Below, in pieces: positions 1 to 43,349 of a DNA stretch of 64,000 nucleotides. This DNA comes from a bacterium. GTDB lineage: Bacteria; UBA10199; 2-02-FULL-44-16; JAAZCA01. Below the pieces are notes generated by a model that was given only the letters and a program-made list of their open reading frames with translations, ran no database searches and was not told where the DNA came from. Location: assembly GCA_963674695.2 (NCBI GenBank), contig CAXXGI010000002.1:672001-736000 (forward strand), in the 5' to 3' direction. Positions within the stretch are counted from its first letter, which is position 1, and each line of letters starts with the position of its first letter. Both the position numbers and the translations under genes were made by a program.

Positions 1-3000
1 CCGCCGATCGATGAACCGCTCGACGAAAATGATGCGCGCCTCTTTGTTGCCATCTGTATCGCGCGCGGTCAGGAGGAACTGGTCATCTTCGAGCCGTCGC
101 GCGAGAAGGCCTATGCGGCGATCGTGCCGACCTTTCGCGAATTGGATCGCATCGCCCGTGCTCACGGCCATCGCCTCGATCCGGTCGAGTTCATCATGGC
201 CTTCTGCCCTGCGCTCCGTCGTCTCGCGAATGAGGCCGATGGAAACGAGCTGACGCTTCTGGCTCCCCCCTACATGGAGGGGGTGAGCTTCGGCGTGTGG
301 GGCTATCCCACCTTCGCGGCAATCTTCTCGGGGCTCGCAAAATCCGGGCGCATTCAGTCCGAGGTGAACTATGGCACGCGCCGCAACCATGTGGTGGGCA
401 AGAGCTTCCATCCGACCTACCCGATTCTGCAACAATACAGTCGTTCGATCGCCGATGCCGTCGGCGGTGATCTCGACAAGAAACGCGCCTACTATCATTT
501 CGCGGCGTCGTTTCTGCGCTGGGATTTCGTCTTCGATGCGCTGGTTCCCGATCTCGTCGACGAGGCGGGCGGGCGTATCAGTCTCGCCGATACGCGGATC
601 CCCAGTCGCTGGCGTGTTCGGATGGAGGTCGATTCCGATTCGATCACCGGATCGGTCGAGCCGCGCATCAGCGGTGCGCGCAGTCGCCTGTTGTTCGCCG
701 TGAAGTCGGGCACCTACACACGCATGTTGGCGCTGCTCTCGGGTCATCTCCAAAATCTCGATGCGTTTCCCGTGTCGATCGAATTGACCGATCTGCAGGG
801 GCGTGCGGTGGATCTTCATCAGCTGCGTGCGCGTGTGGAAGGGATGATGCAAGGTGACGCCTGGTATCGCGACGATCTGAGCGGCGAGAAGTTTTTCTCC
901 ACCAGTTCCCGCCGCCCGGCGGATCTGTCGCAGATGCAGGCATTCTATAAGGGGGTGCGTGCATTTGCAGAGGAGGTGCTCTTCTTTACCCACGCGCGCG
1001 GGAGCTGGCCTCTGCGCGACGGGGGGGTCGCGTTTGAAATCGCGCCGCGCCTGGCTGGACGAAATCTGGAGACAGCGATCGCTGGACGCGTTTCGCTTGT
1101 AATCGACGATATCTTTGAAGAGGCTCGGCGCGAATCATGGGATGATCTGCGGTTCAATGCGGCGATCGCCGCGCGCGCGACGCTTCAGCGCCTGCGCCTT
1201 GAGGGAACGATCGATGCGGATGCCGCGATCGATTCCGATGAGGTGCGCGAGGCGGCGCGCGCCCGATGGGCGATGAGCGAGGCATATCTGGATCAAGCGC
1301 TCATCGATCTGGCCATGCTGGCCGAGCATCTGCCGCAGGTTCGTGTGACCGATACGGCCGGACGGGTCTTCTCGCGCGCGCATCGTGAGCGCAGCGCTGG
1401 GTTTGCCGAGCCGGCCCTTCCCCTGCGTCGATCGCTTCCGCCCTGGCGCGAGCGCTTCGCGGACACTGCCGCTGTTTATGAGCTGCAGGTCGATGAGCAG
1501 GAGGCGGCTGTCGAGGCGATGGCTGAATACATCGAGACCTTTCGCGGCCTCTATGCGCGCTATTGGGGCGAGGGTTTGCGTGAGATGGTTTGGCGAAGGC
1601 TGCCCGAGACCGATGGGGATCGCATCGACCGCGTGCTCGAAGCGATCGTCGATTTCTTCGCCGCCATTGGTATCGCCTCCGATGCGTCGCGTTCGCGCCC
1701 CTCGAAGCGATCTGACAACGACCGTCTGACGTCAGAGGCGCTGGCGCAGGAGGTCTGTGCCCTCTATGTCGATCGCTTTCCCCAGGAGCGCGATGTCGAT
1801 TCCGGCGTGCCGCTCTTCGAGGGACTTCTCGGGACGATTGTTTCGGCGGTCTTCGCCCAGCATCGCGGTCGGATGCAGCATATGTCGCGTCCCCCTCGGT
1901 CGCTGCGCGTCTTCGAAATGGCGCGCGCGATGGTGCGCGATCACAATCGCCTCTGCGCCAGCACGCCGCCCTTTATCATGCGACATCCGCCGTCGATTGC
2001 GTCAGGTGGGTTGGCCGATCGTCGCCTGACGGCCTTCGTGCGGGAATGGGAGCGGGGGCATCCCGAGGTGCCGGTGAGCGAGCCTGATCTGCTTCGCCGC
2101 GTGGTCGATGCGCGCGCGGGAGGAACGGCTGAAGCGGAAACGATCGTCTCCTCTTTTCTGCGGCGCGAGCGCGAGGATCTGCAACGATGGGAGGGGATGA
2201 TCACCGATTCCCGCGATGGCGTCGCTGCCTTTGTGAAACGTACCTATCGCGCGCCGCTGGTGGAGGGGCGAAGGCTCGAGACGATCGCGCGAATCTATGT
2301 GCGATCCCGCATGCTCTCGGGCGATGCCACGGATCTGATGGAGATCACCCGTGAAGTGGTTGCGCCGGATTTTGCACCGTTTACCGAGATGATCGAGCAG
2401 ATGGCGATCGTGCATGCCAACTTGATTGATCTCTGGTTGCAGGCCGTCAAAGGCAATCTCGAAGAGAGCTTGAGTGATGCGCACGAGGCGCTCAGCCTCA
2501 AGGAGGAGGAGCTCAGGGAGATTGCGCTCAGAAAAGAAGAGGTCGTTGCCCTGCCGGATGATGGAAGGGCGCTGCTGGAGGAAGCGGCGGTGCTCGCCGA
2601 CACCTCGAGCGAAGCCCTGCTGGAAGTGCAGCGCCGCGTTTTTCTGGTTGGCGCGATTCTGGGTGAGAGTCCGATGCGTGCCGATCTGCGCACGCGAGCG
2701 GGGCGCATTTTCGAGGAGCATATCGGTTCGGCACGAAAGAGTCAGGGAAAACAGGTCGAGCGCGAACAGGAGACATTCGACGATATCTCTCGTCGGGTTC
2801 GGGAGATGGTGGTGCAAGCGCACCTTCTCAATTGGCGGTCTGCGCGCATGGTCGCCGATGCAGATATGAAGCTGCAGGGGGATGACGCGACCCTCGTTCG
2901 GGTGCAGCGTTTGGTCCGTGATTTTAGCGACCAGGCGCTGCAATCGAGTACGGTGACCGATCAGGTGAACGCGACCGTCGCGCGTCTCGTCAGCGCTGGA

Positions 3001-22474: not shown

Positions 22475-23682
22475 TCGGAATACGTGGCATCGCTGCATTT
22501 CTGCTGAGCGTGGTCGTCTGCGCGTCGGTCCGGGCGGAGCAGATGAACGATCGCTTCAGCGATCCCCTGCGCGGCATCGAGATGCGCCTGCCGCGCGGCG
22601 CCAGGGTCGTCTATGGGCTCGGACGAACGCTCGCATACGTGACGCTTCCCGACGGCGTCGTCGTGCACGTCCGTGCGGATGATTCGGATCGGGCAAACAC
22701 AATGGGAATCTCGCTCCTCTGCGACGGTGGTGTCGAGCGTCGCATGGAGGCCTATCTCGCCTGCCGCGATCTACGCACGCGCGTTCGGAAACATGAGGTC
22801 CGTTGGGAGCGCGATGGTGATGCGAACCAGGTGTTGCCGTTGCAGGCACCGTCGCCGGCGGGCCTCGCCGATTCGCGACGAAGGACAGTGCGGACGCTCT
22901 CCCTGGCCCTGGAGCGCGCCCAGCAGCGTGCGCTCTTCGCCCTCCTCGATGGTCGCGCCGGATGTCCGGGAGTGGCCGATGAGGTGAGGCTGGCCATGGT
23001 CCTTGCCGATCGCCACGGCTTGGCACCGTGGAGGGATCGCTTCGCCGCGCTCGCTGATGTGTTGGAGCGAAGGCCCGCACCGGATGCATTCGGCCTCCTC
23101 GACGATCGATCGGCGCCGCCGTCGGCCCAGGCGTTGGATCGGGGGCTCGCCCTCATGGACGCCGAACTCGGACGCCTCGTGCGCGCGCGACTCCTCGAGC
23201 GTGCCGAGCGTCCGGAAGCGGCGCGTCGGCTCTATGAACGAGCGGCGCGAGCGCGCGCGGGCTTCTTCGCTCGCGTGGCGCTCATGCGTATGGATCAGGA
23301 TGCGGGGCGTCTCGATGAAGCCCGGCATCGTCTGGATGAGTTGCGCCAGGAGTGCGCGCGCGCGGGTATCGCCTCGGCGATGGTCGATGCCCTGGGAGGG
23401 GGCGATCTCCCCGAGCGGTGCGGCGCCGCGGGTGCCATGGCCGATCTTCGGGAGGGTGTGGCCCTCATTGGGGCTGATCCGCATCAGGCCGTCGTTCTGT
23501 TGCGGCGCGCCGTTTCCGTCGATCCGGCCTTCCTGCTCGCATATCGTGCGCTGGGTCAGGCCCTGTTGGAGGCGGGTGGCGAAGTGGATGCCGTCTGTCG
23601 AGAGCTGCGCACGCTTTTGCAGCATGCGCCGAAAACGGATGCAGTGCAGCGCTTGCGCGCCGAGATCGATCGCCTCGGTTAG
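22456..23682 (+). CDS. Exported TPR protein (C-terminus clipped by IS256)
   Basis: Signal peptide; AVSVDPAFLLAYRALGQAL TPR; stop codon lies in the IS end. Confidence 0.7.
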   Translation: MRTRFLIGIRGIAAFLLSVVVCASVRAEQMNDRFSDPLRGIEMRLPRGARVVYGLGRTLAYVTLPDGVVVHVRADDSDRANTMGISLLCDGGVERRMEAYLACRDLRTRVRKHEVRWERDGDANQVLPLQAPSPAGLADSRRRTVRTLSLALERAQQRALFALLDGRAGCPGVADEVRLAMVLADRHGLAPWRDRFAALADVLERRPAPDAFGLLDDRSAPPSAQALDRGLALMDAELGRLVRARLLERAERPEAARRLYERAARARAGFFARVALMRMDQDAGRLDEARHRLDELRQECARAGIASAMVDALGGGDLPERCGAAGAMADLREGVALIGADPHQAVVLLRRAVSVDPAFLLAYRALGQALLEAGGEVDAVCRELRTLLQHAPKTDAVQRLRAEIDRLG

Positions 23683-24997
23683 TGCAACAAGTTCTGTGTA
23701 CTTTTGGATAAGGGGTATTCTTTGAGTTTTTCGTTACGGATCATGGTCAAGGCATAGAGCATCCTGTCGGCAGCCCCTTGATTGGGGATGATCTCCATAG
23801 GGCGCATTCTGCGGCGATATTCCCTGAATTGTCGTTCGATATGGTTCGAAGTCCTGACAGCCCGGTGGTGCTTTGGATCGCAGGCAAGATACAGCAAGAG
23901 ATGATCCAGATCCCGCTCCAGACATCGCACCGCTTGGGGATATTCAGCCTTCCATCGCCGTGACCATTTTCTGATGAGTCCCATTGCTCGTTTTTCCGTC
24001 CATGTTCCTTCAAAGAGAGGAGACAGTCCTTCTTTGATGGCCGCCTGGTCCGACTTTCGCACTTGCTTCAAGACGTTGCGCATCTTATGGGCCCAACAGA
24101 GTTGATGGGGGGTTTCCGGAAAGACGATCGCGATGGCATTGGCAAGTCCCCGGCAACCATCCGTTGTTATCAGCTGAAGGTGCTTTCCCTCCAATCCTCG
24201 GTGAGCCAAATTCGTCAGAAATTTAAGCCAGGTCTCCTCCCGTTCGCTCCGGGCGAAACAGTAGTCGATGATCTCCCGGGTTCCGTCTCGTCGGATCCCA
24301 TAGGCCACCAGAATCAGTCGCCGCTTCCTCCCCAGTCCCCGGTTCTTGATCCAGACTCCGTCAAACATCAGATACACATATTCGTCTCTGATCTCCCGCT
24401 GATGCCACCGCTTCGCTTCAGTGGACCAGCCGGCCGTCAACCGGCTTACCGTGGACGATGACACCCGCGCAGCCCCAAGCGCCGCCAGCACCTTCTCTAC
24501 ATCCCGTGTCGATATGCCGCGCCAATAACACTCTGTCACTAACCGCGTGATTGCTTCCTGTCGCCGTCCATGTCGATCGACTCCCATGCACCGTGGAAGA
24601 AAGCCTCCTACACGAGGCCGAGGGATGCGGATCCCTTCGATCCACCCCCATACTGTTTCCAGGCTCCGCTGATAAAACCCGTTCCGATGATTCCGCCGAC
24701 GGTTGCTCCGACCATAGGGCTGAACCCCGATCACCCGCTCCTCGAACTCAATCAGGCTCACATCCTCAAAAACCTGCTTCATCAACCCCTTGAAATCCAA
24801 CTCGAATACCCGCTCCTCAAGCTTCCCCATCATCTCGTTGTAGATTCCTGCCGCGTGATTCGGTAAAAGGGCCACTGCTGTCTGCATGGTATCCTCCTTT
24901 CTCTTGTGAGAGAGAGATTTGGAGAATACCCCGAAGACCCCGGAATTCCACCGGGGTCTTCACTTTTCCAATTTTACACACACTTCGTTACACCAAC
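23678..24997 (-). mobile_element. IS256-family insertion sequence
   Basis: Imperfect TIRs GTTAGTGCAACAAGTTCTGTGTA / (rc) GTTGGTGTAACGAAGTGTGTGTA; flanking ATCGCCTCG / ATCGCCCTCG target duplication. Confidence 0.9.
23679..24887 (-). CDS. IS256 (Mutator-type DDE) transposase
   Basis: RNGFYQR.L.T..G, GISTR, YLMFDG, TTDG..GL, QLCWAH..RN, RTSN.IER. Confidence 0.95.
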   Translation of the reverse strand: MQTAVALLPNHAAGIYNEMMGKLEERVFELDFKGLMKQVFEDVSLIEFEERVIGVQPYGRSNRRRNHRNGFYQRSLETVWGWIEGIRIPRPRVGGFLPRCMGVDRHGRRQEAITRLVTECYWRGISTRDVEKVLAALGAARVSSSTVSRLTAGWSTEAKRWHQREIRDEYVYLMFDGVWIKNRGLGRKRRLILVAYGIRRDGTREIIDYCFARSEREETWLKFLTNLAHRGLEGKHLQLITTDGCRGLANAIAIVFPETPHQLCWAHKMRNVLKQVRKSDQAAIKEGLSPLFEGTWTEKRAMGLIRKWSRRWKAEYPQAVRCLERDLDHLLLYLACDPKHHRAVRTSNHIERQFREYRRRMRPMEIIPNQGAADRMLYALTMIRNEKLKEYPLSKSTQNLLH

Positions 24998-25050
24998 ATC
25001 GCCCTCGTTCGCGGTTGAATCCTCACCGCGTTCGTGTCACTATCGCTGCC

Positions 25051-25743
25051 ATGCCCACACCAAAGACGAAGTCCAAGCGTGCACAGCCAAAGGTCGCCAA
25101 GAAGAGCGCGAAAAAAGTGCCGAAGAAAGTCGCTGCAAAGCCAAAGCGGAAATCGGCGGCTCGACCAAAGCTTGCAGGGCCGCGACCGAAGCGACCGAAG
25201 AAGATCGATCTTCCGGATCTCAATGCCCTCAACATCCAGCAGGTGGCGGCGGTGCTCTCCGCCTATTTTGCTTCATATGGATACGAGCCGGTGCTTACGG
25301 GACGAGCCGTGGCGGCCATCTATGCCGGCGCGGGGGTCAAACCACGCACGCTCGATTTTGCTGCGCCCGAATACGAGGTCGATGAGGTGGGAAAGGCCAT
25401 GAAGCGCATCGGCTTCAAGGAGGGTGCCTTTCGGACCTTTCGCAGCGACATCTGTCCGTATGAGATCGTCTTCACCCCTTTTCCCGTTACGATCGGCGAG
25501 AACATCGTTGAAGACTTTCACATCATGCGCACGGCCGAAGGGCCCTTGAAGATGCTCACCCCCACCGATTGCGTGCGCCAGATGCTCGCGCGTTACTACC
25601 GCTGGGGCGATCGCGACGGCATGCACGAGGCCAGGCTCGTCGCCCGCAAGCACACCATCGATTACGAGATGGTCAAGCGCTGGTCCGAGTGGGAGTGGGC
25701 CGGCGACCGCTACGATGAATTCCTCGAAGGGATTGAAGCGTAG
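25051..25743 (+). CDS. Nucleotidyltransferase-fold protein (degenerate) with Lys/Arg-rich N-terminal tail
   Basis: VLTGRAVAAIY...TLDF and LTPTDCV...LA.YY.WGD resemble DUF6036/AbiEii-like NTases; first ~50 aa are KKVAAK-rich. Confidence 0.6.
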   Translation: MPTPKTKSKRAQPKVAKKSAKKVPKKVAAKPKRKSAARPKLAGPRPKRPKKIDLPDLNALNIQQVAAVLSAYFASYGYEPVLTGRAVAAIYAGAGVKPRTLDFAAPEYEVDEVGKAMKRIGFKEGAFRTFRSDICPYEIVFTPFPVTIGENIVEDFHIMRTAEGPLKMLTPTDCVRQMLARYYRWGDRDGMHEARLVARKHTIDYEMVKRWSEWEWAGDRYDEFLEGIEA

Positions 25744-25838: not shown

Positions 25839-26825
25839 TCACCGAAAGCGGAGACAGCCCGGAAGTTTTCCCATCAGTTTCGATTCACGACAGATCTGAT
25901 CGATGCGATAGGCGGAATAGGTTCCGGTATAGGCGCATGTCGGCGAGCCGAACATGGCGCTCACCGGGATGATGCCGACGAGCGCTCCTTCCGGAGTAAA
26001 TATACCTCCGCCGCTGCTGCCGTAGGAATAGTCGGCCGTGTGATAGAGGAGCACGTCCGCTTGTTGGAAGAGATTCAATGTCCGATAGATCTTTCCAGGC
26101 GTGCCCTCGTCTTTTTCCAGCGCATCCCATTCCCGAGGCAGGTTGAAATCCACGCGCGGTGCCTGTTTCACGAAGATCGGATCGTCATACTGGTGGTCGC
26201 GTATTGCCAACAGGATGCGTTTCTGAAAGGCGTCGTGCGACTGGATTTCACCCGGAGCGATAAAGATCCCTTCGCCATCATGTCCCGGACGGGGCAGCAT
26301 GCGCACCATGCTCGTCGGAAACGTGATTGAAAAGACTGGTGCGCCGCGGCGGGTCCTTTCGAAGTCGGCCTGCTCTTTGAGGAGTATGGCCAGCGCGTTC
26401 GGTGTGATGATCGGTGCGACACCGATCGTGTCGGGCATTTCTTCGGGCTTGTCGATGCGCAGGAGCGCCCAGTCCTGGACATGCTTCTTTTGGTGGCTGA
26501 AATCTCCCTGTTCGACGAGGGTCAGCGTGAATGTGTTTTTATCCGTTTTGAAGCTGAAGGGAAGGCTGTCCTTGGCAGGGATGTCGCCGTTGATTCCCGT
26601 GAGGCAATGCGCCGCCGTCAGAATGAGATCCGGAGCGACACGCACCGCACTGCAGGATCGCCTCTCCTTCGCCATGAGAAGAATGACGGCAGTCGAGGCT
26701 TTCTCGATGCCTGCCGGGATCCGAACCGTCTTCCGCCCTGTCCCCGCACAGGAAGAGAGGAGGCTGAGAGTAATGACCACATGAAATACACAGTGGTATG
26801 GCCATTTTCGTAAACGCAGATTCAT
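25839..26825 (-). CDS. Trypsin-like serine protease, probable lipoprotein
   Basis: LSSC lipobox; LTAAHC, DWALL and GSSGG catalytic triad motifs. Confidence 0.85.
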   Translation of the reverse strand: MNLRLRKWPYHCVFHVVITLSLLSSCAGTGRKTVRIPAGIEKASTAVILLMAKERRSCSAVRVAPDLILTAAHCLTGINGDIPAKDSLPFSFKTDKNTFTLTLVEQGDFSHQKKHVQDWALLRIDKPEEMPDTIGVAPIITPNALAILLKEQADFERTRRGAPVFSITFPTSMVRMLPRPGHDGEGIFIAPGEIQSHDAFQKRILLAIRDHQYDDPIFVKQAPRVDFNLPREWDALEKDEGTPGKIYRTLNLFQQADVLLYHTADYSYGSSGGGIFTPEGALVGIIPVSAMFGSPTCAYTGTYSAYRIDQICRESKLMGKLPGCLRFR

Positions 26826-26913
26826 ATGGTTGCCCCGAATAATCCGCTAAACAACTACAACATAATGAATCGGGTTGCCAACATAACGTGCCAAGATGAA
26901 GGTTGATCTATTG

Positions 26914-27138
26914 TTAGGGCCTTCTGGGTACAGTAGGATCCCAATCAGGTCCGTCACAGGGGAGGTCGCACGGCATGCAGTCCTCCCCGATGAAATTAGA
27001 TAAATTTTCAGCAGGTCTGATATAGATATCCATTGTTTCGAACTGATCATCCATTCGGTGCAATGTTGGTTGATATTTGTCCAGCTCCGGTTTTGTTGGT
27101 TGTGATGGTGGAATATTTCTTCCGGTCAATATTTTCAT
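26914..27138 (-). CDS. Putative RiPP precursor peptide (74 aa; C-terminal CMPCDLPCDGPDWDP)
   Basis: Strong AAGGAG RBS 7 nt before ATG; directly downstream of (overlapping) the rSAM/SPASM gene. Confidence 0.6.
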   Translation of the reverse strand: MKILTGRNIPPSQPTKPELDKYQPTLHRMDDQFETMDIYIRPAENLSNFIGEDCMPCDLPCDGPDWDPTVPRRP

Positions 27139-28522
27139 CGCATTCTCCTTTCACATCGTTATGTGGCAACCCGTTTATATGATGTAAACCTTCATCGTTT
27201 TGAATGGCGTGCAGATATCTTTGTGTAAGTGCGCGAAACATGCCCCGGGCAATCTGGCATCCATCGCTCTTGGACATGATGGTGCCGTTGTTCTTGTAGG
27301 CATTGAGCGCGCAACCTCCTGCGCAGAGCCCCTCGATGTCACAGCCAGCACACCCGGGGATGTCGGGCGCTGAACGTCGTGCCAACCGTTGAAAGGTTCC
27401 CGAGCGCAGGGCCGCATCTATGTCGAAGATGGTGCCATAATGTTCGTCGAATCCAGGACACGGTTTGAGGGAGCCATCGGTGCTGACGCACAGCTCCCGT
27501 CCACAGGCAGCGCAGTTCGAGGGGGTGTTGGGCTGGCGAAACAGGCGTTGGAATGGCCATTGCCAGCTACCTCCGACGTGAACGTTCCGTGTGTTGGCAT
27601 AGTCGACTGCTTGAAGGAATCGATCGATGATTGCCTTCGTCGGAATGTGGAGTGATTTGTCCCGAATTTCTGCGTACGCATTTTGAAAGGTGAGTCGAAG
27701 CGAACGCTCTGCAGCGATATCGATAATGGCCTGAAGCTCATCACAGTTGTGATCGCCGACGGTACAGATGAGACAGAGTTTGTCGACTTTCGCACCCTGA
27801 AGGTGATCGAGTGCGCGAATGATCTGGTCGAAGGAACCGCTTCCGTTGCGCATGGTTCGGGTGCTGTCGTTTTGGGTGCGATTGCCGTCTAGGCTGACGG
27901 CGACATGGATGTTATGTTCCTTTAAGAAGATTGCCTTGTCTCGATCGATTAGAGTGCCGTTTGTGGCGATGCGGATGGATGTGATGCAGGATGTCCGCGC
28001 GATGCGTTCTTCGATGATTGGGATGGTATCGACGATACAGGGCCAGTTGAGCAGCGGTTCTCCTCCGAAGTATGAAATTGAGCCCGTGTGTTTGTGCTGA
28101 TCGAGGATGTCGCAAAAGAGGTGTATCGCTCTTTGTGCAACAGGGCGATTCATGAGCGTGGCATCTGTGTGGCAATTTACATAGCAATAGCTGCAGCGCA
28201 TATTACAGCTTTCGGCGACACACAACTTCATGTAATGAATGGAGGCTGTGGGGTCGGTGCCTGAAGGTGATTTTTTGGCTGGCACCGGTGTTGTTTCGAT
28301 GAATCCCTTTTGGATGAGTGTATCGATGAGGTCTAATGGAACCCGATGATCTCCGCATTGGAGACGATCACTATCCTGGGCCAGATGGGCGAGTTCCCAG
28401 ATCAGTTTTTCGCTCGCGAGACAACCATTGCCTCGAAGGGCGTGATAGATGAGACCATCCTGGCCGGGTTTTCCGAGGATGAAGCGGAAATATGGCGATA
28501 TGCGATGTCCGATTTGAACCAT
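27047..28522 (-). CDS. Radical SAM/SPASM domain peptide maturase
   Basis: CNMRCSYC, YFGGEPLL, TNGTL, VSLDG; SPASM C..C....C...DG.LKPC and CAGC.....CAGGC; ~95-aa N-terminal extension. Confidence 0.92.
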   Translation of the reverse strand: MVQIGHRISPYFRFILGKPGQDGLIYHALRGNGCLASEKLIWELAHLAQDSDRLQCGDHRVPLDLIDTLIQKGFIETTPVPAKKSPSGTDPTASIHYMKLCVAESCNMRCSYCYVNCHTDATLMNRPVAQRAIHLFCDILDQHKHTGSISYFGGEPLLNWPCIVDTIPIIEERIARTSCITSIRIATNGTLIDRDKAIFLKEHNIHVAVSLDGNRTQNDSTRTMRNGSGSFDQIIRALDHLQGAKVDKLCLICTVGDHNCDELQAIIDIAAERSLRLTFQNAYAEIRDKSLHIPTKAIIDRFLQAVDYANTRNVHVGGSWQWPFQRLFRQPNTPSNCAACGRELCVSTDGSLKPCPGFDEHYGTIFDIDAALRSGTFQRLARRSAPDIPGCAGCDIEGLCAGGCALNAYKNNGTIMSKSDGCQIARGMFRALTQRYLHAIQNDEGLHHINGLPHNDVKGECDENIDRKKYSTITTNKTGAGQISTNIAPNG

Positions 28523-28560
28523 GCTTGCTCCCTTCCTTTCGCATGAACATGCTGCTTGAT

Positions 28561-28576
28561 AGCAAGGGCCGTGCCA
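28561..28576 (-). promoter_or_regulatory. sigma54 promoter of the rSAM operon
   Basis: TGGCACGGCCCTTGCT on the minus strand (near-perfect consensus); IHF-like AAGTTCTTGATA at ~28606. Confidence 0.8.
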
Positions 28577-28732
28577 GTGAGAGTGGTTTAAGAGGACGCT
28601 CTGGAAGTTCTTGATATATTTAAGGTTGTTGAATGGTCGGTTGTTGCATCGTTTGTGCAAAAGAGCAGGTAGTGCACTAACTCGCGAACACGGTTGTTCG
28701 CTGAAATGAACAGGCATGGAATTGGCTTTGGG

Positions 28733-28765
28733 AAAAGAAAACCCCGCGGCATGACCGCGGGGTTT
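28733..28765 (-). terminator. Rho-independent terminator after aminopeptidase
   Basis: AAACCCCGCGG-CATGA-CCGCGGGGTTT plus U-tract on the minus strand. Confidence 0.8.
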
Positions 28766-28787
28766 GTCAGGCAATGAGTGGTCTTTT

Positions 28788-29867
28788 CTACACCAATACC
28801 TCTCCATCCTTCACGAGCTGCTTGCGTTTGCCGTCGGGGAAGATCAATTCAAATGACGTGCAGGTGATGGGGCTGTCCTTGGCGTAGACGATGTCCTGGT
28901 GGATGACGTTCTCCGGCGAGTTGAAATCCTTGACGCCCACCGTTCCGCCGATGTGATCGCTGCGGCCGTAGGCCCAGTGAAAACCCGCCTTTTCATCCTG
29001 CAGGACGCTTCCGATGATCGTGGCCTTGTCGTTGCAGCCCACGGCGACCTCGGCGATGTTGCACATCGCTTTGTCCGCGAGAATCTTTTCACGCGCGGCC
29101 TTCGTCTTCGGGCCGTCGCCCTGGATGTCGACGATGCGGTTCTGCTTGATCACGAAGACGGCGCGTTCGTCGCCGTAGGCGACCGGGAGTTCCCCCTCCG
29201 TCTTGCTGTCGGCAGCTTCGTTCGGCGTCATGAAGGTCTCGCCCGCGGGGAGATTGTGCAGGGCGTTGAGCGTGCCGGCGACCTTCGGTGGGAGCAGGCC
29301 GTCGTCCAAGTAGATGGCGTTATCGACGTTGATATCGAAGGTGCAGCGGTGCCCTGTCTCGAAGGTCGCTTCCGCGCTCACCGCCTCTTTGAACATCGGC
29401 GCCATGATGCGACATTTCTCGGCGACGTTGTTGTAGTCGGCGGCGAGCCCCGTCTCCTCCATCACGCGCGTCATGCCGGGCATGCTGCCGACGCGTAGCT
29501 TCGTGTTCGACTTGGTGTATCCCATGAGCGGCGCGGTGGCGGAAAACTGCGGCATCGCGATGCAGATGGTCGTCTTTTCCAGCACGTCGCCGATCGCGAC
29601 GGTGTCCTCGCCCATGGTGCCCTTCTCGGGAAAGTCGGCGTTGTTGGCACCCGTGGCCTCATAGTGCAGGAGCGGGTTCACGGTGATGCCCCACTCGTTT
29701 GCCTTGGCCGCGATCTGTTCCTGCCAATTCGTGGCGATGGCGCGACGATCCTTCCAGTCGGCCGTGTCGGCGATGTTCCCGTGCGGCGTGTCGTAGAGGA
29801 TCGTGAGCACGTCCCCCTTTTCAGGGGCGAAGATGTTCTGAAAGAATGTAACGACGTCGAATGCCAT
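28788..29867 (-). CDS. Aminopeptidase (M29/thermophilic metalloprotease-like)
   Basis: NLPAGETF, NIAEVAVG.N, DEK...H.AYG, HQDIV. Confidence 0.8.
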   Translation of the reverse strand: MAFDVVTFFQNIFAPEKGDVLTILYDTPHGNIADTADWKDRRAIATNWQEQIAAKANEWGITVNPLLHYEATGANNADFPEKGTMGEDTVAIGDVLEKTTICIAMPQFSATAPLMGYTKSNTKLRVGSMPGMTRVMEETGLAADYNNVAEKCRIMAPMFKEAVSAEATFETGHRCTFDINVDNAIYLDDGLLPPKVAGTLNALHNLPAGETFMTPNEAADSKTEGELPVAYGDERAVFVIKQNRIVDIQGDGPKTKAAREKILADKAMCNIAEVAVGCNDKATIIGSVLQDEKAGFHWAYGRSDHIGGTVGVKDFNSPENVIHQDIVYAKDSPITCTSFELIFPDGKRKQLVKDGEVLV

Positions 29868-31208: not shown

Positions 31209-31627
31209 TGCCTGCCACGGCCCCATTCCCTTCGTCGCTCAGGCCACGCGCCAGCGTCACCGCGCTGCGCATCCTTCCCTTCATCGTGGGGCGCGCTTCG
31301 CTCGCTACCCCTCGCACAAAATCCGTTGGCTAACTAAGGAGTTCATATCCCACTGCACATCTGACTTCGGCTTATGGCCTGCGACTGCGTCAGATTTCGA
31401 CAAATATCCGTCAACGTAGCTACGGCTACGCCTCCGGATGTTTCTCTCATCTTCCTTGTCTCGGCTCATAATCCTGTGTCATCTGTGCAGTGGGATATGA
31501 ACTCCTTAGTAATCGACATTGAGGATCCTCCTTCGTCGGCTCTCAATACCGTGAAGCCAATCGGATTTTGTGTTTCGGGATACGCTCGTCTCGCAAACGC
31601 GCCTTTATACTCCTCCGGGAAGGATGC
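31209..31627 (-). repeat. Degenerate copy of a ~200-bp structured repeat (interrupted by a MITE), inverted relative to 36620-36827
   Basis: Shared blocks, e.g. GTCTCGCAAACGCGC, CTCCTCCGGGAAG, TCCTTCGTC, CCTTCCCTTC, TGCCTGCCACG. Confidence 0.7.
31333..31510. mobile_element. 178-bp MITE-like element
   Basis: 27-bp perfect TIR ACTAAGGAGTTCATATCCCACTGCACA; internal CGTAGCTACGGCTACG palindrome; no credible ORF. Confidence 0.8.
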
Positions 31628-31765
31628 ACAGCGCGGTGTGCCAAGAGAACCCATCTAAACGCACTGCTGGACGATGGCCTCAAGAGATCTATGTCACATT
31701 GTCGAGATTGCGGTATGCGTTACAACCTATTGTAATCACTGTATTATCAGAAAAATGAGGGGGCA

Positions 31766-33700
31766 CCCCCCATCCGACAGGAAGAAAGTTGTTTGTGCGC
31801 GGAAATGCTGGCGTAGATTGAGAAGGCGAAGAATCGAAGATGATTCGATCTTCACCCTGAGGGTGAAGATCGGGACCGATAGTGCGGGTTGTCCCTCTTG
31901 TCCACATCCGGCGGTGGGTATCCCCTTCATTACTATGGTCGGAGTTTAGTCTGGAGGGAGACTGCAAAAAAAAAAGGGAAGCCCCTCTTTTCCTCTCGGA
32001 AAAGCTCGTGTAGAAAGGGTTTGAGACTCCATCCTACACAAAGGAAAGGAACTTCCCTATGATCAGACCTCTACGCCAAAGCCTCCTTCCGTTCAAGTGT
32101 GAAATGATGGATCGCGACGATACGCTCACCGGATTCGGTGGTCTGCCCCTACTGCACGAGATGATGCTCGCCCTGGAGCTGCCTCGATTCGTACGCCGTA
32201 CGCTCAAGCTGAAGGGGAAGGGCTGGGAGGAGTGGCGACTCCTCGAAGCGCTTATCGTCATGACCGTTGCAGGTGGGGAGCATATGGGCGATATAGCGAT
32301 GCTGAAAAGCGACGGGGCCTATCATCGTTTGATCGGTAACGAGGGGATGCCCGGCCCCAAGGCCGTCGAGCGGTTCTTGAAGCGCTTTCACGATCAAGCG
32401 CTCGTCGATGAGCGCCCTTTGTTTCCTCGCTCGTGGGTGCCAAAGGAGACGAAAGCGCTTCAATCGTTGGGGAAGATCGATCGCCATATTGCCCGCAAGC
32501 TCATCGAGCGGAGCGGACTGGCCACCGTAACGATCGAAAACGATGCCACCGTCGTTACAAGTCACAAGGATGGTGCGCTGGCAACGTACAAGGGCGGCGT
32601 TGGCTACCTCCCCGTCATCGGCACGATCGCAGAGCTGGGGATCGTCATCGCCGACGAGTTTCGAGACGGAAACGTTGCCCCTGCACACGATGTCCTGGGC
32701 TTCTTCAAGCGCTGTTTCTCGGTGATTCCCAAGGGCATGCACCATATCCGCACACGGCTGGACGGAGCATATTACGATCACGACCTCATCGATTTCCTTG
32801 GGCGCGAGAAGATCTCATTCACGATCACCGGGGAGAAGCGCGCCGGGATCCTGGACTGGATCGAGAGGATACCTGATCAGGAATGGAAGCCGCTCACGAA
32901 GATTACTGAGCAAGGCTCCGTCCCCACTGGGCGCGAGTGGACCGAGATCGACTGGGTGAGTGCAAACGGATCGCAGGAGCAGATGCGGGATAGGACGTAT
33001 CGCTATCTCGTCACCAGAAAGACAGCGGATCAGTGGGAGCTGTTTCAGGAGGAGGCCGCAGGAGAGGTCGTACGCAAGGAACGCTATGAGCTCATAGTCA
33101 CCAACATGAAGTGGGAGGGCGATCGCCTCATCCGGTGGCACCACGAACGGGGTGGGACGATCGAACACGTCAACAAGCAGATCAAGAGCGATCTCGCCGG
33201 TGGAACGCTTCCCTGTGCCGAATTCGGCGCCAACGCCGCATGGTGGAGGATCCAGTGCATCGCTCAGAATCTTGTGCAGGCACTCCAACTGCACGCCCTG
33301 CCCGAGGAGCTCTCAACCTGCCGACTCAAGAAGCTGCGGCTCTGGCTCTTCTGCATCGCCGGACGCGTCATCAAGACTGGACGGCAGATCATCATCAAAC
33401 TCCGTCACGGACATCCGTCGTTTGAGATCTATCGAGATGCCAGGCGACTCATCGCGAATATGGCTGGGACGTGAGGGCACAGGAAGAACGCGAGAGAAGG
33501 GAAAAAGAGAAGAACAGAAACCGTCGATGGGGTGCGTTCGTAATGTGGCATGAGATATCCTCAGACGGCGGTGAAGACGACAAGACGGAGAAAACATCTC
33601 CGCGCGGCGCTGTTTTCGACGAGATCCAGCCGCCATTTTAAAAAAACAGGCCGGATAATGGTGTGAAGTTAATGCCAATTTTGATGTGTCGGATTTGGGG
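31766..33700 (+). mobile_element. IS1380-family insertion sequence
   Basis: TIR-like ends CCCCCCATCCGACA / TGTCGGATTTGGGG around the transposase; no clear TSD seen. Confidence 0.75.
32059..33474 (+). CDS. IS1380 DDE transposase
   Basis: LTGFGGL, NDATV, GYLP, FRDGN, RLDGAYY, ERGGTIE, FGANAAW, LRLWLFCIAGRV. Confidence 0.93.
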   Translation: MIRPLRQSLLPFKCEMMDRDDTLTGFGGLPLLHEMMLALELPRFVRRTLKLKGKGWEEWRLLEALIVMTVAGGEHMGDIAMLKSDGAYHRLIGNEGMPGPKAVERFLKRFHDQALVDERPLFPRSWVPKETKALQSLGKIDRHIARKLIERSGLATVTIENDATVVTSHKDGALATYKGGVGYLPVIGTIAELGIVIADEFRDGNVAPAHDVLGFFKRCFSVIPKGMHHIRTRLDGAYYDHDLIDFLGREKISFTITGEKRAGILDWIERIPDQEWKPLTKITEQGSVPTGREWTEIDWVSANGSQEQMRDRTYRYLVTRKTADQWELFQEEAAGEVVRKERYELIVTNMKWEGDRLIRWHHERGGTIEHVNKQIKSDLAGGTLPCAEFGANAAWWRIQCIAQNLVQALQLHALPEELSTCRLKKLRLWLFCIAGRVIKTGRQIIIKLRHGHPSFEIYRDARRLIANMAGT

Positions 33701-33713
33701 GATCATGAACCAC

Positions 33714-33741
33714 GCAACTTTTCCGGTGTTGAACCGACAAT
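33714..33741 (+). promoter_or_regulatory. Putative sigma28-like promoter of the DGR target (GCAACTT-N12-ACCGACAAT)
   Basis: Same bipartite motif family; 48 nt upstream of the ATG. Confidence 0.5.
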
Positions 33742-33788
33742 GGAGATGTGTGAGCGTATAAATCAAAATTTCAAACAGGAGGTGTGCG

Positions 33789-34691
33789 ATGGCAGGTCCA
33801 GTCAAGTGTCCGAACGATATGTGCCCGATCCCGGCGGGGACGTTCAAAATGGGATCGACGAACGGCGATCCGGACGAACAGCCGGTTCGCGAGATCGAGC
33901 TCTCGGCATATAAGATGATGAAGCACCCCGTGACCGTGCGCGAGTACAGGGCCTATCTGGCCGAGAAGGGCGAGGGCGATCGCTTCAAAGCCCTCATCAA
34001 GGGTTGTGGGGCGGATGCCAAGTGGCGGACCGTCGAAAATAAAAAGGGACAAGGGAAGGTGAAGACCCGAAAGGATGCCGCCGGGCTTTTGCGAGGAAAA
34101 ATCGATGGGAAGAAGGTGTGCGAGGCCAAGATCGAAACCATCACCCCCGCCTCCATGCTCAAATTGGACGAGGGGTTCGACGGCGACGATCAGCCGATGG
34201 TCGAGGTGAGTTGGCCTGAGGCCGATGCCTACTGCAAATTCTACGGCATGGAGCTCCCCTCGGAGGCACAGTGGGAACGGGGTGCAAGAGACCTTGCCGG
34301 TGACAAGGAGTATGGGACATCGAGCGGGACGAGGGCGCGTTTGAGCAAGGAGGCGCATGTCAGTGCGAGGGAGACTGCGCCGGTCTGCTCCTATGCGGAA
34401 AACGAAATTGGCCTCTGTGACATGGCCGGCCAGGTGTGGGAATGGACGCGAGATGTGTACCAGGATAGTTATGAGGGGTTGAGTTCAAAAGATCCTTGTA
34501 ACAATCCGCCCCTTCCTGAATCTCAAAAGGATAAGCCCGACAAACGCAATAGGGTCCTCCGCGGCGGTTCCTGGTACTTCCTCAATCCGAGGTTCTTGCG
34601 TGCGGCGTATCGTTACGACTTCCTCCCCGCCGTTGGCTACTGCAATGTTGGGTTTCGGTGTGTGGCGGCCCCGCAGGACTCCAAAAAGTGA
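33789..34691 (+). CDS. DGR target protein, FGE-sulfatase/CLec fold
   Basis: IPAGTFKMGS, HPVTVREY, PMVEVSW.EA..YC, LPSEAQWE, GLCDMAGQVWEW, RVLRGGSW...GFRCV; VR at the 3' end. Confidence 0.95.
   Translation: MAGPVKCPNDMCPIPAGTFKMGSTNGDPDEQPVREIELSAYKMMKHPVTVREYRAYLAEKGEGDRFKALIKGCGADAKWRTVENKKGQGKVKTRKDAAGLLRGKIDGKKVCEAKIETITPASMLKLDEGFDGDDQPMVEVSWPEADAYCKFYGMELPSEAQWERGARDLAGDKEYGTSSGTRARLSKEAHVSARETAPVCSYAENEIGLCDMAGQVWEWTRDVYQDSYEGLSSKDPCNNPPLPESQKDKPDKRNRVLRGGSWYFLNPRFLRAAYRYDFLPAVGYCNVGFRCVAAPQDSKK
34552..34682 (+). repeat. DGR variable repeat (VR) incl. IMH
   Basis: 131-bp ungapped match to TR 36161-36291; 20 mismatches at TR adenines plus one C/G near the 3' end. Confidence 0.97.
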
Positions 34692-34720
34692 TGTAGACTT
34701 TTATTCTTTTGTTTTTTACC

Positions 34721-34755
34721 CTCGCCCCGTCCTTTCGTAGAAAGGACGGGGCGAG
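34721..34755. promoter_or_regulatory. DGR target-recognition hairpin/cruciform
   Basis: Perfect 16-bp stem CTCGCCCCGTCCTTTC, 3-nt GTA loop, just downstream of VR/IMH. Confidence 0.85.
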
Positions 34756-34759
34756 TTTT

Positions 34760-34843
34760 ATGATGACAGCCAACCCTCAAATCATCGCCAGGATGTATGA
34801 TCTACTGCTCTACCTCATTCCGCAGGTCTCCAAATTTCCACGA
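34760..34843 (+). pseudogene. avd: Avd (DGR accessory variability determinant) 5' remnant
   Basis: MMTANPQIIARMYDLLLYLIPQVSKFPR matches the Avd N-terminal YDL..Y..P...KFPR pattern, then runs into REP sequence. Confidence 0.8.
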
Positions 34844-34864
34844 ACTGAACTGGAAGCAGTTTTT

Positions 34865-35275
34865 CCCTCCCCCTTGATGGGGGAGGGTCAGGGTGGGGGT
34901 GGCCTTTGAAGAAACTCGTATCCCTCTCAAGAAACTTGAGGACGAACGCTACGGATACGGAGAAATTCCTATGGCAGCGCCTCAAGGGGAAGCAATTGAC
35001 CGGTTTTAAGTTCCGGAGGCAGGCACCCATCGGAAGGTACGTCGTGGACTTTGTTTGCTTTGAGAAGCGCGTTATCATCGAATGCGACGGCGGCCAGCAC
35101 GCCGATCAAGTCGAAAAAGACCAGCGGCGGGATTCCTGGTTTGCCCAACAGGGATACCGCGTTCTGAGATTCTGGGATAACGACGTTCTCAAAAATGTTG
35201 AGGGAGTTCTGGAGACGATTCTCGACGCCTGTCAGGGTCACCCTCCCTCCGACTCCCTCCCATCAAGGGAGGGAG
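34865..35275. mobile_element. REP-flanked DUF559 cassette inserted in the DGR
   Basis: CCCTCCCCCTTGATGGGGGAGGG..GGGTG and CACCC..CTCCCTCCCATCAAGGGAGGGAG inverted REP-like ends around the nuclease gene. Confidence 0.7.
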
Positions 35276-35286
35276 AAAAGAGTTAG
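34906..35286 (+). CDS. DUF559 / Vsr-like endonuclease
   Basis: [44 protein letters not shown]....GYRVLRFW. Confidence 0.92.
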
Positions 35287-35288
35287 AC

Positions 35289-36148
35289 AGCGCTGCCCCG
35301 TATCGCGACCGTGTGGTCCACCACGCTATACACAACATTCTCGAGCCGATCTTCGATCCGACGTTCATCCACGATTCCTATGCCACACGAAAGGAAAAGG
35401 GAACGCATGCAGCCATCGACCGCTTTCAGGAGTTCGCGCGAAAGAATCGTTACGCGTTGAAATGCGATGTGAAGCAGTATTTCCCGAGTATCCGGCACGA
35501 CATTCTGCTCGACTTGATCAAGCGAAAGGTCGGATGTTGCGCAACGATTCGGCTGATCGAAAAGATCTTGAATTCGCACGACGCCATGGCCAGTTTCTTG
35601 CATCCATCCATCCATCCATCCATCCATCCATCCATCCATCCATCCATCCATCCATCCATCCAGTAGGAATCCCTATTGGAAATCTGACTTCACAGTTCTT
35701 CGCAAATGTCTATCTCAACGGGTTGGATCATTTCGTCAAAGAACAGTTGAAGTGCCGATGTTATCTTCGGTATATGGATGATTTTGTCCTCTTCCACCGG
35801 GACAAACAGTTCTTGTGGACAGCCAGGGGGGCGATTCAGGAATATCTTGAGGGTCTGCATCTCTCCATGCATGAGGGGAAGTGTCGGGTTTTCAAGACGG
35901 CAACGGGCGTCCCTTTTCTCGGTATGGTCGTTTTCCCTCACTGTCGTCGATTGAAGAGGGGGAATGTCATCCGATTTAAGAGGAGGTTGAAGCGTTTTCA
36001 GCAATCGTATGGGAAGGGAACCATCGAATGGTTGCATATCAGGCAATCCATTCGATCTTGGATCGGTCATGCCTCTCATGCCGATACGGCAAGATTGAGA
36101 GAATATTTATTGGAGGATGTGGTCTTCCAGCGAAAGGAGGGTGATTGA
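35289..36148 (+). pseudogene. DGR reverse transcriptase, N-terminally truncated and frameshifted at a (CATC)15 tract
   Basis: Frame A: [13 protein letters not shown]...[12 protein letters not shown]...[11 protein letters not shown]. Frame B: [17 protein letters not shown]...RYMDDFV...PFLG...SWIGHA. The SQ motif is DGR-type. Confidence 0.93.
35601..35662. repeat. Tetranucleotide microsatellite (CATC)15CA
   Basis: Counted directly from the sequence. Confidence 0.97.
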
Positions 36149-36160
36149 TCGAAACGGAGT

Positions 36161-36291
36161 GGGTCCTCCGCGGCGGTTCCTGGAACAACAACAATCCGAG
36201 GAACTTGCGTGCGGCGAATCGTAACAACAACCACCCCGCCAATAGCAACAACAATATTGGGTTTCGGTGTGTGGCGGCCCCGCAGCACTCC
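36161..36291 (+). ncRNA. DGR template repeat (TR)
   Basis: AAC/AAT-rich (13 AAY codons in the VR frame) copy of the VR, immediately after the RT stop. Confidence 0.95.
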
Positions 36292-38340: not shown

Positions 38341-38757
38341 ATGCATACATTCAAAGTTGCTCTTGCTGTGGTCGTAGCGATCGCCTTTGTCTCCGTGTCG
38401 TGGATCGGTACGGCCAACGCCGAAACCTGTGAGGTGGGGACGAAGACGCAGGTGAAATGGAAGGGGTCGTGGTATAAGGCGAAGGTCCTCAAGCGAAAAC
38501 CCAATAAAGCGCTGATTACCTATGATGGCTATGGCAGCAATTGGGATGAGTGGGTGGGCCCCGAGCGCATCAAGTGTAGCTTTGCTGCAGCTTCGGCCAA
38601 CCCCTATCCGGAAGGATCGGCCGTGAAGGTGAAGTGGAAGAAGAAATGGTGGCCCGCCAAGGTCATCGGGGTTAAAGAAAACACGTGGAAGATTCATTAC
38701 AACGGCTACGACAAGTCCTGGGATGAATGGGTGGGTCCAAATCGCATCAAGAAGTAG
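38341..38757 (+). CDS. Secreted protein with two Tudor/Agenet-like domains
   Basis: Signal peptide; duplicated V.W...W..AKV......I.Y.GY...WDEWVGP.RI. Confidence 0.85.
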   Translation: MHTFKVALAVVVAIAFVSVSWIGTANAETCEVGTKTQVKWKGSWYKAKVLKRKPNKALITYDGYGSNWDEWVGPERIKCSFAAASANPYPEGSAVKVKWKKKWWPAKVIGVKENTWKIHYNGYDKSWDEWVGPNRIKK

Positions 38758-43157: not shown

Positions 43158-43333
43158 GCGGATCTTATAGGGCCAAGCGATGGGCGATGACAACAGCGGA
43201 AACGGGGAAACCCACGGGTGACCGCCCGGCAGCATCCACGAAGAACACACGAAACACACGAAACCGATTCCGAGCATCGCTTGAAATGACAATATTTCAA
43301 GGGGTTGAAAAATCGACGCCCCCTCGCGTTCGC

Positions 43334-43349
43334 TGGCATGCCTCTTGCT
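43334..43349 (+). promoter_or_regulatory. sigma54 promoter divergent from the bEBP gene
   Basis: TGGCATGCCTCTTGCT; palindrome TTGAAAT-N6-ATTTCAA at 43281-43300. Confidence 0.7.

Follow-up and report, generated by a model that had tools for sequence, protein, structure and literature searches.

A probable ranthipeptide-like RiPP cassette behind a sigma-54 promoter on a low-GC bacterial island

Which substrate is modified, and by which chemistry, by a radical S-adenosylmethionine (rSAM) enzyme that is encoded behind a sigma-54 promoter and next to a small cysteine-containing open reading frame (ORF)? This question is raised by a locus of contig CAXXGI010000002.1 (assembly GCA_963674695.2, positions 672,001 to 736,000), a 64-kb stretch of bacterial DNA, hereafter the window, which belongs to a genome of 3.03 Mb (G000). 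The locus lies on the minus strand throughout and comprises, in 5' to 3' order, a terminator, a sigma-54 promoter, an rSAM/SPASM maturase gene, a peptide ORF and a protease gene. An earlier note, made from the sequence alone, had described here a system for a peptide made by the ribosome and modified after translation (RiPP), and the elements that it listed are all present on that strand where it had placed them. The cassette is a real, undescribed, ranthipeptide-like RiPP cassette. At the sequence level, its promoter, its gene structures, the architecture of its maturase (RiPP recognition element or RRE, rSAM and SPASM domains) and its conserved synteny are established; we infer the pairing of substrate and enzyme, the thioether chemistry, the export route, the part that the protease plays and the biological function. 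The reading towards which we lean, with a confidence slightly better than even, is that of a sigma-54-dependent three-gene RiPP operon on a low-GC island flanked by insertion sequences (ISs), whose maturase would cross-link Cys to Asp residues of the peptide and whose protease would trim it.

Promoter, transcription unit and maturase

The promoter TGGCACggcccTTGCT (28576-28561, minus strand; TGGCAC-N5-TTGCT, -24/-12) lies 38 nt ahead of the maturase ATG and is the sole exact match to TGGCACN5TTGCW within the window. Genome-wide, the motif TGGCA[CT]N5TTGC[AT] is found in 58 copies, where 10 first-order Markov simulations of the 3.03-Mb genome give 5.0 on average (range 3-9; ~11-fold excess), and the TGGCAC form in 35 copies against 1.3 (~27-fold excess). 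So strong an excess makes a chance origin of any single match unlikely. Each of ten genomic copies inspected lies tens of bases upstream of an ORF, like the window copy, and the genome carries one rpoN gene and a set of sigma-54 activator domains, of which ten are strong and three weaker. The site at 28576-28561 thus combines exact -24/-12 spacing, a gene downstream and rpoN in the genome. Furthermore, an exact sigma-54 promoter, TGGCACgctgcTTGCT, precedes the closest homologous operon, found in a genome (G013) that belongs to the same order but to another family; the promoter read by the earlier note therefore proves to be an exact consensus with an equivalent elsewhere. The sigma-54 promoters of the window's genome favour one spacer, TGGCACGCTCCTTGCT being present in 6 copies and TGGCATGCCTCTTGCT in 4 (e.g., C1:26858, C1:314892, C2:216168). 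These recurring 16-mers were considered as a repeat element, which was rejected since their flanks are unrelated; they reflect a promoter preference.

Upstream of the cassette, the gene of an M29-like peptidase ends at 28788 (minus strand) and is followed by its intrinsic terminator (28765-28739, minus strand), a 12-pair stem with 8 G-C pairs, an 11-nt perfect inverted repeat and a T-rich tail. Judged from its sequence, this terminator, which the earlier note had also recognized, insulates the operon from the peptidase gene. The following spacer is AT-rich, measures 160 nt and carries a perfect 7-bp inverted repeat, GCGAACA-N4-TGTTCGC (28684-28701), some 110 nt upstream from the -24 element. 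This position makes the repeat a candidate upstream activating sequence only, i.e., a candidate site for an enhancer-binding protein (EBP) activating sigma-54. Further downstream, no terminator-like site was found on the minus strand between 28522 and 25500, so that the three genes look like a single transcription unit.

The maturase gene (27047..28522, minus strand) encodes 491 amino acids. Its true start, ATG 28522 (MVQ...), preceded by a GGGAG ribosome site, was fixed by an alignment of the window maturase with 13 homologues (alignment A1, 14 sequences), and its frame ends at TGA 27047. The public 586-residue model (P0001, from 28807) was rejected: its start is placed 285 nt too far upstream, the frame from 28807 reading through the terminator and the promoter. 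The gene model corrected here thus joined an over-extended maturase start to a missed, unannotated precursor.

The identity of the enzyme as an rSAM/SPASM protein, proposed by the earlier note, is confirmed by several features. The Pfam model PF04055 (Radical_SAM) scores 65.5 bits for a threshold of 29.5, and the CX3CX2C motif (C106/C110/C113) in the rSAM barrel (residues ~97-330) is invariant in the 14 sequences. So are, in the SPASM region (residues 337-422), the seven cysteines C337, C355, C391, C394, C400, C404 and C422, which satisfy the SPASM pattern (C337...G350-x4-C355; C391-x2-C394-x5-C400-x3-C404; C422). The SPASM model PF13186 was not reported for the window maturase at E <= 0.01, though it is precomputed for several homologues.

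An AlphaFold2 (AF2) model built from the 14 sequences has a mean predicted local distance difference test (pLDDT) score of 79 and a predicted template modelling (pTM) score of 0.79. Its superpositions on TigE, CteB and anSME, all of them SPASM enzymes, give Z 28-35. The superposition on TigE (Z 35.2, root-mean-square deviation 2.9 A) includes 415 residues, 2..452 of the model and 3..469 of TigE, and that on CteB (Z 33.7, 406 residues) extends over CteB 1..450, RRE included. In the same way, profile searches against solved structures retrieve TigE (8VPO) with 6.8e-67 over the whole length and CteB (5WGG) with 1.7e-53. RREs are PqqD-like winged helices with three beta strands and three helices; the N-terminal fold of the model includes beta strands (6-36) and helices (38-49 and 63-71). 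With enzymes devoid of an RRE (ChlB, anSME), the alignment begins only near residue 88 of the model, residues 2-88 being covered only by the RRE-bearing TigE and CteB, and the A1 profile aligns from position 4 to TigE residue 3. According to the description of TigE (PMC10878394), its residues 3-85 are its RRE. Since both the superposition and the profile reach it, the N-terminal extension of the window maturase (residues 1-85; 28268..28522, minus strand) is, on alignment and predicted structure, an RRE, as the earlier note had thought possible.

The candidate precursor, its relatives and the protease

The candidate precursor ORF (26914..27138, minus strand) fills the gap between the maturase and protease genes, 88 nt ahead of the latter. 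It encodes 74 residues, MKILTGRNIPPSQPTKPELDKYQPTLHRMDDQFETMDIYIRPAENLSNFIGEDCMPCDLPCDGPDWDPTVPRRP, with a polar leader and a core spanning G51-P74 (EDCMPCDLPCDGPDWDPTVPRRP, nt 26917-26988). The core, quoted as EDCMPCDLPCDGPDWDP, contains C54, C57 and C61 as well as five Asp. A Shine-Dalgarno sequence AAGGAG (27145..27150, minus strand) is located 6 nt ahead of the ATG, in the canonical arrangement AAGGAG-N6-ATG. Among the possible starts M1, M29 (an ATG overlapping the maturase TGA, ATGGATGA) and M36, only M1 has a ribosome site. Direct reading of 27138-26914 agrees with the earlier note on the ORF, its strong ribosome site and its core. The gene layout given there holds in part: both ORFs are real, but their overlap had been missed, the maturase frame being open to 27047.

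This frame overlaps the peptide ORF by 92 nt in another reading frame, and the maturase's C-terminal tail (residues 446-491, 45 amino acids; 27050..27187, minus strand) holds the ribosome site and the first 30 codons of the peptide. The tail has a counterpart in 0/13 aligned homologues and is predicted to be disordered, residues 445-491 having a pLDDT of ~25 (23-27) in the AF2 model. The homologues end about 35-40 nt before the position of the ribosome site of the peptide, and a 21-nt spacer parts the two genes in G013. From these comparisons, the overlap is best read as a displaced (lost) stop codon in the enzyme. In the crystal structure of TigE, the enzyme's C-terminal tail occupies the groove of its own RRE, as reported in PMC10878394; by parallel, the extra tail of the window maturase could be an autoinhibitory element or a neutral read-through.

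Homology searches with the peptide returned very little. No match was found among Pfam and NCBIfam models, and none of the related peptides scanned against NCBIfam matches any model. No candidate was retrieved from a word-indexed collection of 5.8 billion proteins, the peptide itself included, which is therefore unannotated. A phmmer search against 1.84 billion representatives gave two matches only, repeat proteins of >2,100 amino acids with 7-10 stretches each, which we take as compositional. A search of the ESM Atlas gave no usable match, and BLASTP against both candidate peptides of G013 no alignment. The precursor family, which the earlier note did not recognize, was not identified by these searches either. 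A profile of six candidate precursors (A3), poorly aligned at a mean column identity of 31 %, picked out of 95 candidates no sequences but four of the six that it was built from.

A short motif, [LMV]PCDxxC, is common to the window peptide and to both candidate peptides of another genome, G002. Across the six-frame ORFs of the 3-Mb genome (30 amino acids or longer), PCD..C has only 21 occurrences and, among the ten listed matches near an ORF end, the window peptide is the only one outside Arg-rich frames that look spurious by eye. Six candidate cores were compared, i.e., those of the window, two from G013, two from G002 (G002-a and G002-b) and one from G059. Cys and Asp/Glu are enriched in 6/6 and a Cys-Asp dipeptide is found in 5/6. 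Trp is present only in the window core and absent from the other five, and the DGPDWDP half of the window core is not conserved elsewhere. A Y-[IV]-R motif about 15 residues before the first Cys of the window and G013 leaders was noticed by eye only and is not claimed.

The closest maturase homologues (P0002-P0005), with 36 % identity, were found only in Logan assemblies. A survey of 93 representative genomes of the phylum, all from one class, led to detection of the rSAM clade (profile, E <= 1e-60) in 4/93, namely the window's own genome, G013 (37 % identity), G002 and G087. The protease family (E <= 1e-8) was likewise found in 4/93 (the window's own genome, G013, G002 and G059). The earlier note would have been contradicted by homologous rSAMs devoid of a similar peptide; on the loci compared, it was not: a small Cys-containing ORF adjoins 4/5 of those with rSAM homologues (G013, G002, L003 and L085, but not G087), and a Cys/Asp-rich small ORF is seen at 3/3 other loci with a protease homologue.

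In G013, the promoter TGGCACgctgcTTGCT is followed by a 105-residue ORF ending in RFVDRIFCSTFPDACM, the rSAM gene, a 102-residue ORF immediately after it that ends in GPGFCDCDCECPEA, a 150-residue ORF, a B12-rSAM gene and the protease gene. The product of the 150-residue ORF looks PqqD-like by eye and matches neither Pfam nor NCBIfam models. The upstream region encodes another rSAM together with a family-5 binding protein and a hybrid kinase, and a second hybrid kinase is encoded downstream. The sigma-54 promoter and its 5' leader are present four times in 16 kb of this locus (L170). These near-identical cassettes of promoter, 5' leader and AAAGGAGACATTATG are located at 832, 6141, 11153 and 14751 (plus strand). 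Small paralogues of 79 and 105 amino acids, which share HLAYLGLISL...SIDNYPDETFP...NPNAPTI, are driven by two of them; only the longer one (105 residues) ends in a Cys-containing tail. One cassette is devoid of a following ORF of at least 30 amino acids.

G002 harbours two loci of this kind. On a 5.6-kb contig, an 84-residue ORF ending in LPCDDPCVNFCDQHC (G002-a) precedes two rSAM genes and an MA-type peptidase gene; on a separate contig, an 86-residue ORF ending in SVPCDEICTGICNQICDAI (G002-b) lies directly upstream of the protease homologue. In G059, an ORF ending in NCSGDCACDCTADCHEKCCDT is followed by a more distant rSAM/SPASM gene, whose two halves give BLASTP E values of 2e-14 and 0.005, then by the protease gene. 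In the candidate precursor of G059 (L178, 1810-2069, plus strand), the ATG at 1810 comes with a strong ribosome site but is followed, nine codons on, by an in-frame TAG. The rSAM/SPASM gene (2126-3531, plus strand) is split in two ORFs, a sign either of cluster decay or of an assembly error in this 89 %-complete genome.

Among the contig-scan matches listed, two loci from other phyla, L003 (E 8e-57) and L085 (E 1e-56), were the only ones of a wider clade; a K-x-LKL-x-I-x-EI leader and a PCPCG motif are common to their downstream ORFs. The scans of genome and metagenome contigs were dominated by generic rSAM motifs (FGGEPLLNW, CNxxCxYC) and G013 itself is not among the matches listed, so that absence from them is uninformative. 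In L003 (902-3046), the rSAM/SPASM homologue itself bears a fused MA-type (HExxH) peptidase-like domain at its N-terminus; in L085 (680-3001), a second rSAM, encoded upstream, carries such a domain at its C-terminus, and in G002 (L169, ~1339-2268, minus strand) the domain stands alone. As a partner, it is distinct from the close clade's trypsin-fold protease.

The third gene of the cassette (25839..26825, minus strand) encodes a trypsin-fold serine protease of 328 amino acids, predicted to be a lipoprotein. It scores 38.3 bits for Trypsin_2 (cut-off 27.6) and 30.8 for Trypsin (cut-off 20.6), and has no family match in NCBIfam. The lipobox LSSC and the triad motifs AAHC, DWAL and GSSGG were read by eye; the triad motifs align to Streptomyces trypsin and are kept in the G013 homologue. 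The latter, encoded by the last gene of its cluster, shares 34 % identity over the full length (E 7e-52). The trypsin-like lipoprotein of the earlier note is thus a conserved member of the cluster. Since the window copy has a lipobox and the G013 copy a Sec-type signal peptide (by eye), the protease should act outside the cytoplasm.

Chemistry, proposed mechanism and rival explanations

The best NCBIfam match of the maturase is PapB (NF047865), with 161.9 bits for a cut-off of 340, i.e., a top match and not membership. PapB is also the top match in 7/7 relatives tested (130-160 bits) and, for the window enzyme, outscores all cyclophane and sactipeptide models by >35 bits. The next matches are the Nif11-type maturase, the SCIFF maturase, CbpB and QhpD, two of which, QhpD and the SCIFF maturase, are thioether enzymes. 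As PapB is the best match of the window enzyme and of 7/7 relatives and Trp is not seen in related cores, these comparisons favour Cys-Asp thioether chemistry over a Trp cyclophane. Of the two chemistries that the earlier note had left side by side, the Cys thioether thus gains ground and the Trp cyclophane loses it.

The cassette shares with PapB/PapA (freyrasin) an rSAM/SPASM maturase and a C-terminal core with Cys and Asp/Glu. However, PapA contains six C-x3-D/E repeats, whereas the window core contains two C-x3-D units (C54-x3-D58 and C61-x3-D65), with three Cys in a PCDxxC context; adjacent pairs (C57-D58, C61-D62) are also on offer. According to PMC9413430, PapB accepts Cys-Xn-Asp with n = 0-6. 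The portions of the PapB literature consulted describe no linked sigma-54 promoter or trypsin-fold protease.

CteB/CteA (SCIFF, thermocellin; 5WGG) have the same architecture of RRE, rSAM and seven-Cys SPASM. Nevertheless, the window enzyme scores 107.7 bits for TIGR03974 (cut-off 425), and the SCIFF precursor has six Cys in forty-five whereas the window peptide has three Cys and no NCBIfam match (E <= 0.01). TigE/TvgB provide the closest solved structure and profile match and the N-terminal RRE is common to both systems, but the window precursor is devoid of TVGG/TIGSVS-type repeats. Cyclopropyl synthases are defined, in PMC10878394, by a GYW motif whose Tyr is a ligand of Aux I. The t-G-Y-W-h of TigE aligns with g-G-S-W-q in the window enzyme and with G-P-W in its closest clade. 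Identity as a cyclopropyl synthase was rejected on this ground.

In the maturation of quinohemoprotein amine dehydrogenase (QhpD/QhpC/QhpE), the rSAM/SPASM enzyme QhpD introduces Cys-Asp/Glu thioethers, then a dedicated serine protease cuts the leader, the product acting outside the cytoplasm. QhpD (TIGR03906) scores 104.7 bits for the window enzyme and up to 143.5 in relatives, below its cut-off of 453. Among the neighbours scanned, there are no dehydrogenase subunit genes; moreover, the Qhp protease is subtilisin-like whereas that of the window is trypsin-fold, and the window island has no exporter. Another likeness concerns the CXXX-repeat family (TIGR04115), whose chemistry is to our knowledge uncharacterized: the G002 peptides show (C-x3)3-C arrays, and C-x2-C-x3-C is found in the core of the window peptide. 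Its scores, 62.7 bits for the window enzyme and 105-107 in wider-clade relatives, are all far below the cut-off of 350.

In the mechanism that we propose, an EBP would activate sigma-54 RNA polymerase at 28576-28561, giving a transcript that would span maturase, precursor and protease. The precursor would be translated from its own AAGGAG within the non-conserved tail of the maturase, whose RRE would bind the polar leader. The rSAM/SPASM core would then join the thiols of C54, C57 and C61 to carbons of nearby Asp, in ranthipeptide chemistry of the PapB/QhpD/CteB type, with C54-x3-D58 and C61-x3-D65 as the canonical candidate pairs. Lastly, the peptide would be exported and its leader trimmed by the extracytoplasmic trypsin-fold lipoprotein.

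Several observations weigh against this proposal. The maturase is under every NCBIfam equivalog cut-off, so that its chemistry is not assignable by membership, and its closest structural relative, TigE, makes cyclopropanes, not thioethers. The window peptide has no homologue in any sequence search; what ties it to the family is its location, its composition and a motif of six residues. The related cores do not keep C-x3-D. In G087, no Cys/Asp-rich ORF was seen beside the rSAM gene, which is split at its N-terminus. The occurrence of rSAM clade and protease together in 3 genomes (the window's own, G013 and G002) is, with such small numbers, suggestive and not a statistical proof, and the count overstates independence since the surveyed genomes are kin within one phylum. 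Neither a dedicated EBP nor a transporter was found in the island among the neighbours scanned. The peptide has no signal sequence, yet the protease is extracytoplasmic; export by something outside the island would therefore be needed, which is a weak point of the model.

Three other explanations have to be set beside the thioether reading. The 74-residue peptide could be the substrate of a different reaction, such as sactionine formation (Cys-S to C-alpha), a Trp66 cyclophane or C-C crosslink, epimerization or another radical reaction. This is rather unlikely, although the enzyme lies under all curated cut-offs, finds its top structure and profile match in a cyclopropyl synthase, and matches, also under their cut-offs, the cyclophane maturases YhhB (93.8 bits vs 445), FxsB (87.2 vs 370) and GrrM (74.3 vs 310). 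The W-D-P triad of the window core and the non-acidic PCPCG cores of L003 and L085, from which the acceptor need not be Asp, point the same way. The replacement of the GYW of TigE by GSW or GPW, the lead of PapB over the cyclophane and sactipeptide models and its first rank in all relatives tested, and cores that have Cys and Asp/Glu in 6/6 but Trp in 0/5 of those other than the window's argue for the thioether. Precursors of the maturases that form three-residue cyclophanes (XyeB, GrrM, FxsB, YhhB) would be expected to conserve an aromatic-X-X motif.

The 74-residue ORF could also not be a gene or not be the substrate, the maturase then acting on some other protein, for instance the protease encoded beside it or a target encoded elsewhere. 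Protein-modifying SPASM enzymes are known, among them anSME, which acts on sulfatases and is among the profile and structure matches, and QhpD, which acts on a dehydrogenase subunit. We hold this to be improbable: the 92-nt overlap with the enzyme frame, which would speak for it, involves a tail absent in 13/13 homologues and predicted to be disordered, which resembles a lost stop and not a coding constraint. The peptide is missing from the public protein collection and has no homologue, but it has a canonical ribosome site, similar Cys/Asp-rich ORFs adjoin the homologues, two of these carry the PCDxxC that is so infrequent genome-wide, and the RRE of the enzyme is a hallmark of leader-dependent peptide maturases. 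Nearly as improbable is that the cassette, acquired horizontally, was cut to three genes by IS activity, losing its regulator, exporter and accessory enzymes, and is a stranded remnant that no longer functions in its host. The low-GC island, bordered by an IS256 transposase and with another transposase 3 kb farther on, would fit such a history, as would the apparently displaced maturase stop, the in-frame stop and split rSAM of the G059 copy, and the far larger G013 version (two hybrid kinases, binding protein, 150-residue ORF, B12-rSAM, second rSAM, four promoter cassettes). However, none of the three ORFs of the cassette is disrupted and their catalytic residues are conserved, the promoter matches the consensus perfectly and the stretch recurs nearly unchanged in sequencing runs (see below).

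The setting of the G013 operon, with kinases, a binding protein and several sigma-54 cassettes, hints by analogy at a signalling role. A wider proposal, which we regard as speculative and rather doubtful, takes the cassette as the smallest version of a sigma-54-controlled RiPP family not yet described, composed of a 'PCD-box' peptide rich in Cys and Asp, an RRE-rSAM/SPASM maturase and a dedicated extracytoplasmic trypsin-fold protease, the product of which would be an extracellular signal and not an antibiotic. If this were true, the context of G013 (two hybrid sensor kinases, periplasmic binding protein, four sigma-54 cassettes) would make the modified peptide an autoinducer of a sigma-54-gated circuit.

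Radical SAM/SPASM maturases are among the main sources of new chemistry for cross-linking peptides, and enzymes of the PapB type already serve to staple them. A RiPP cassette with an RRE-rSAM/SPASM maturase is a known kind of system; uncharacterized rSAM-RiPP families are common and this one contradicts no expectation. The enzyme clade, the precursor type, the conserved trypsin-fold partner and the conserved sigma-54 promoter were not found described in NCBIfam, in Pfam or in the accessible portions of the full-text literature on ranthipeptides and PapB, and large RiPP compendia may already hold the clade. Within the same partial coverage, nothing relevant was found in full-text literature combining radical SAM, SPASM and sigma-54, and the literature and family searches made gave no described RiPP class with a secreted trypsin-fold protease as a conserved partner. 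The maturase clade is isolated (36-37 % identity to its nearest relatives, below every curated family cut-off) and the precursor type is unannotated and invisible to homology searches. The operon is compact (three genes, 2.7 kb), hence readily tested by co-expression, and its conserved sigma-54 promoter is a rare handle on the switching-on of such clusters.

The island and its surroundings

The GC content is 0.485-0.558 across 26600-28999, against 0.60-0.70 in both flanks and 0.58-0.59 genome-wide, in agreement with the AT-richness pointed out by the earlier note. In the same way, the GC content at third codon positions (GC3) is 0.56 for the maturase gene and 0.86 for the adjacent peptidase gene. 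At its far edge, the low-GC island is bounded by an IS256/Mutator-family transposase gene (23679..24887, minus strand; Pfam Transposase_mut, 268 bits), with a second transposase 3 kb beyond. Only 1/12 other genomes of the same family has a member of the rSAM clade, and the loci of relatives are AT-rich (33 % and 43 % GC). From this composition and distribution, the cassette was probably acquired horizontally from a lower-GC donor. The stretch was found nearly unchanged (0.93-1.00 of sampled words) in three sequencing runs of two samples, no RNA run being listed.

Inside the island, between the transposase and protease genes, an ORF of 274 residues (24919-25743, plus strand) encodes a Lys/Ala/Pro-rich, histone-H1-like N-terminus and a C-terminal domain without Pfam or NCBIfam match. 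A second mobile-element patch, where GC content is again lower (0.50-0.59), extends over 31400-36200. It includes genes for a DDE group-1 transposase (32059-33474) and a protein with an FGE-sulfatase domain (33789-34691), as well as a fragment that carries a reverse-transcriptase domain (35195-36148).

The EBP gene nearest to the cassette (40020-43364, minus strand) encodes a protein of 1,114 amino acids with binding-protein, HAMP and AAA+ domains. This activator was rejected as the dedicated regulator of the cassette, being 12 kb distant with its own divergent promoter. Its organization is unusual, as it associates a periplasmic phosphonate-type binding domain with HAMP and AAA+ (Sigma54_activat, 115 bits), and its gene faces the divergent promoter TGGCATgcctcTTGCT (43334-43349, plus strand). 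Two similar, weaker-scoring activators are encoded elsewhere in the genome (C2:419618, C3:813780). Lastly, an ORF of 138 residues (38341-38757, plus strand) matches, in two stretches, the eukaryote-type Tudor-knot/chromodomain PF11717 with 53.4 bits, which is unusual for a bacterium.

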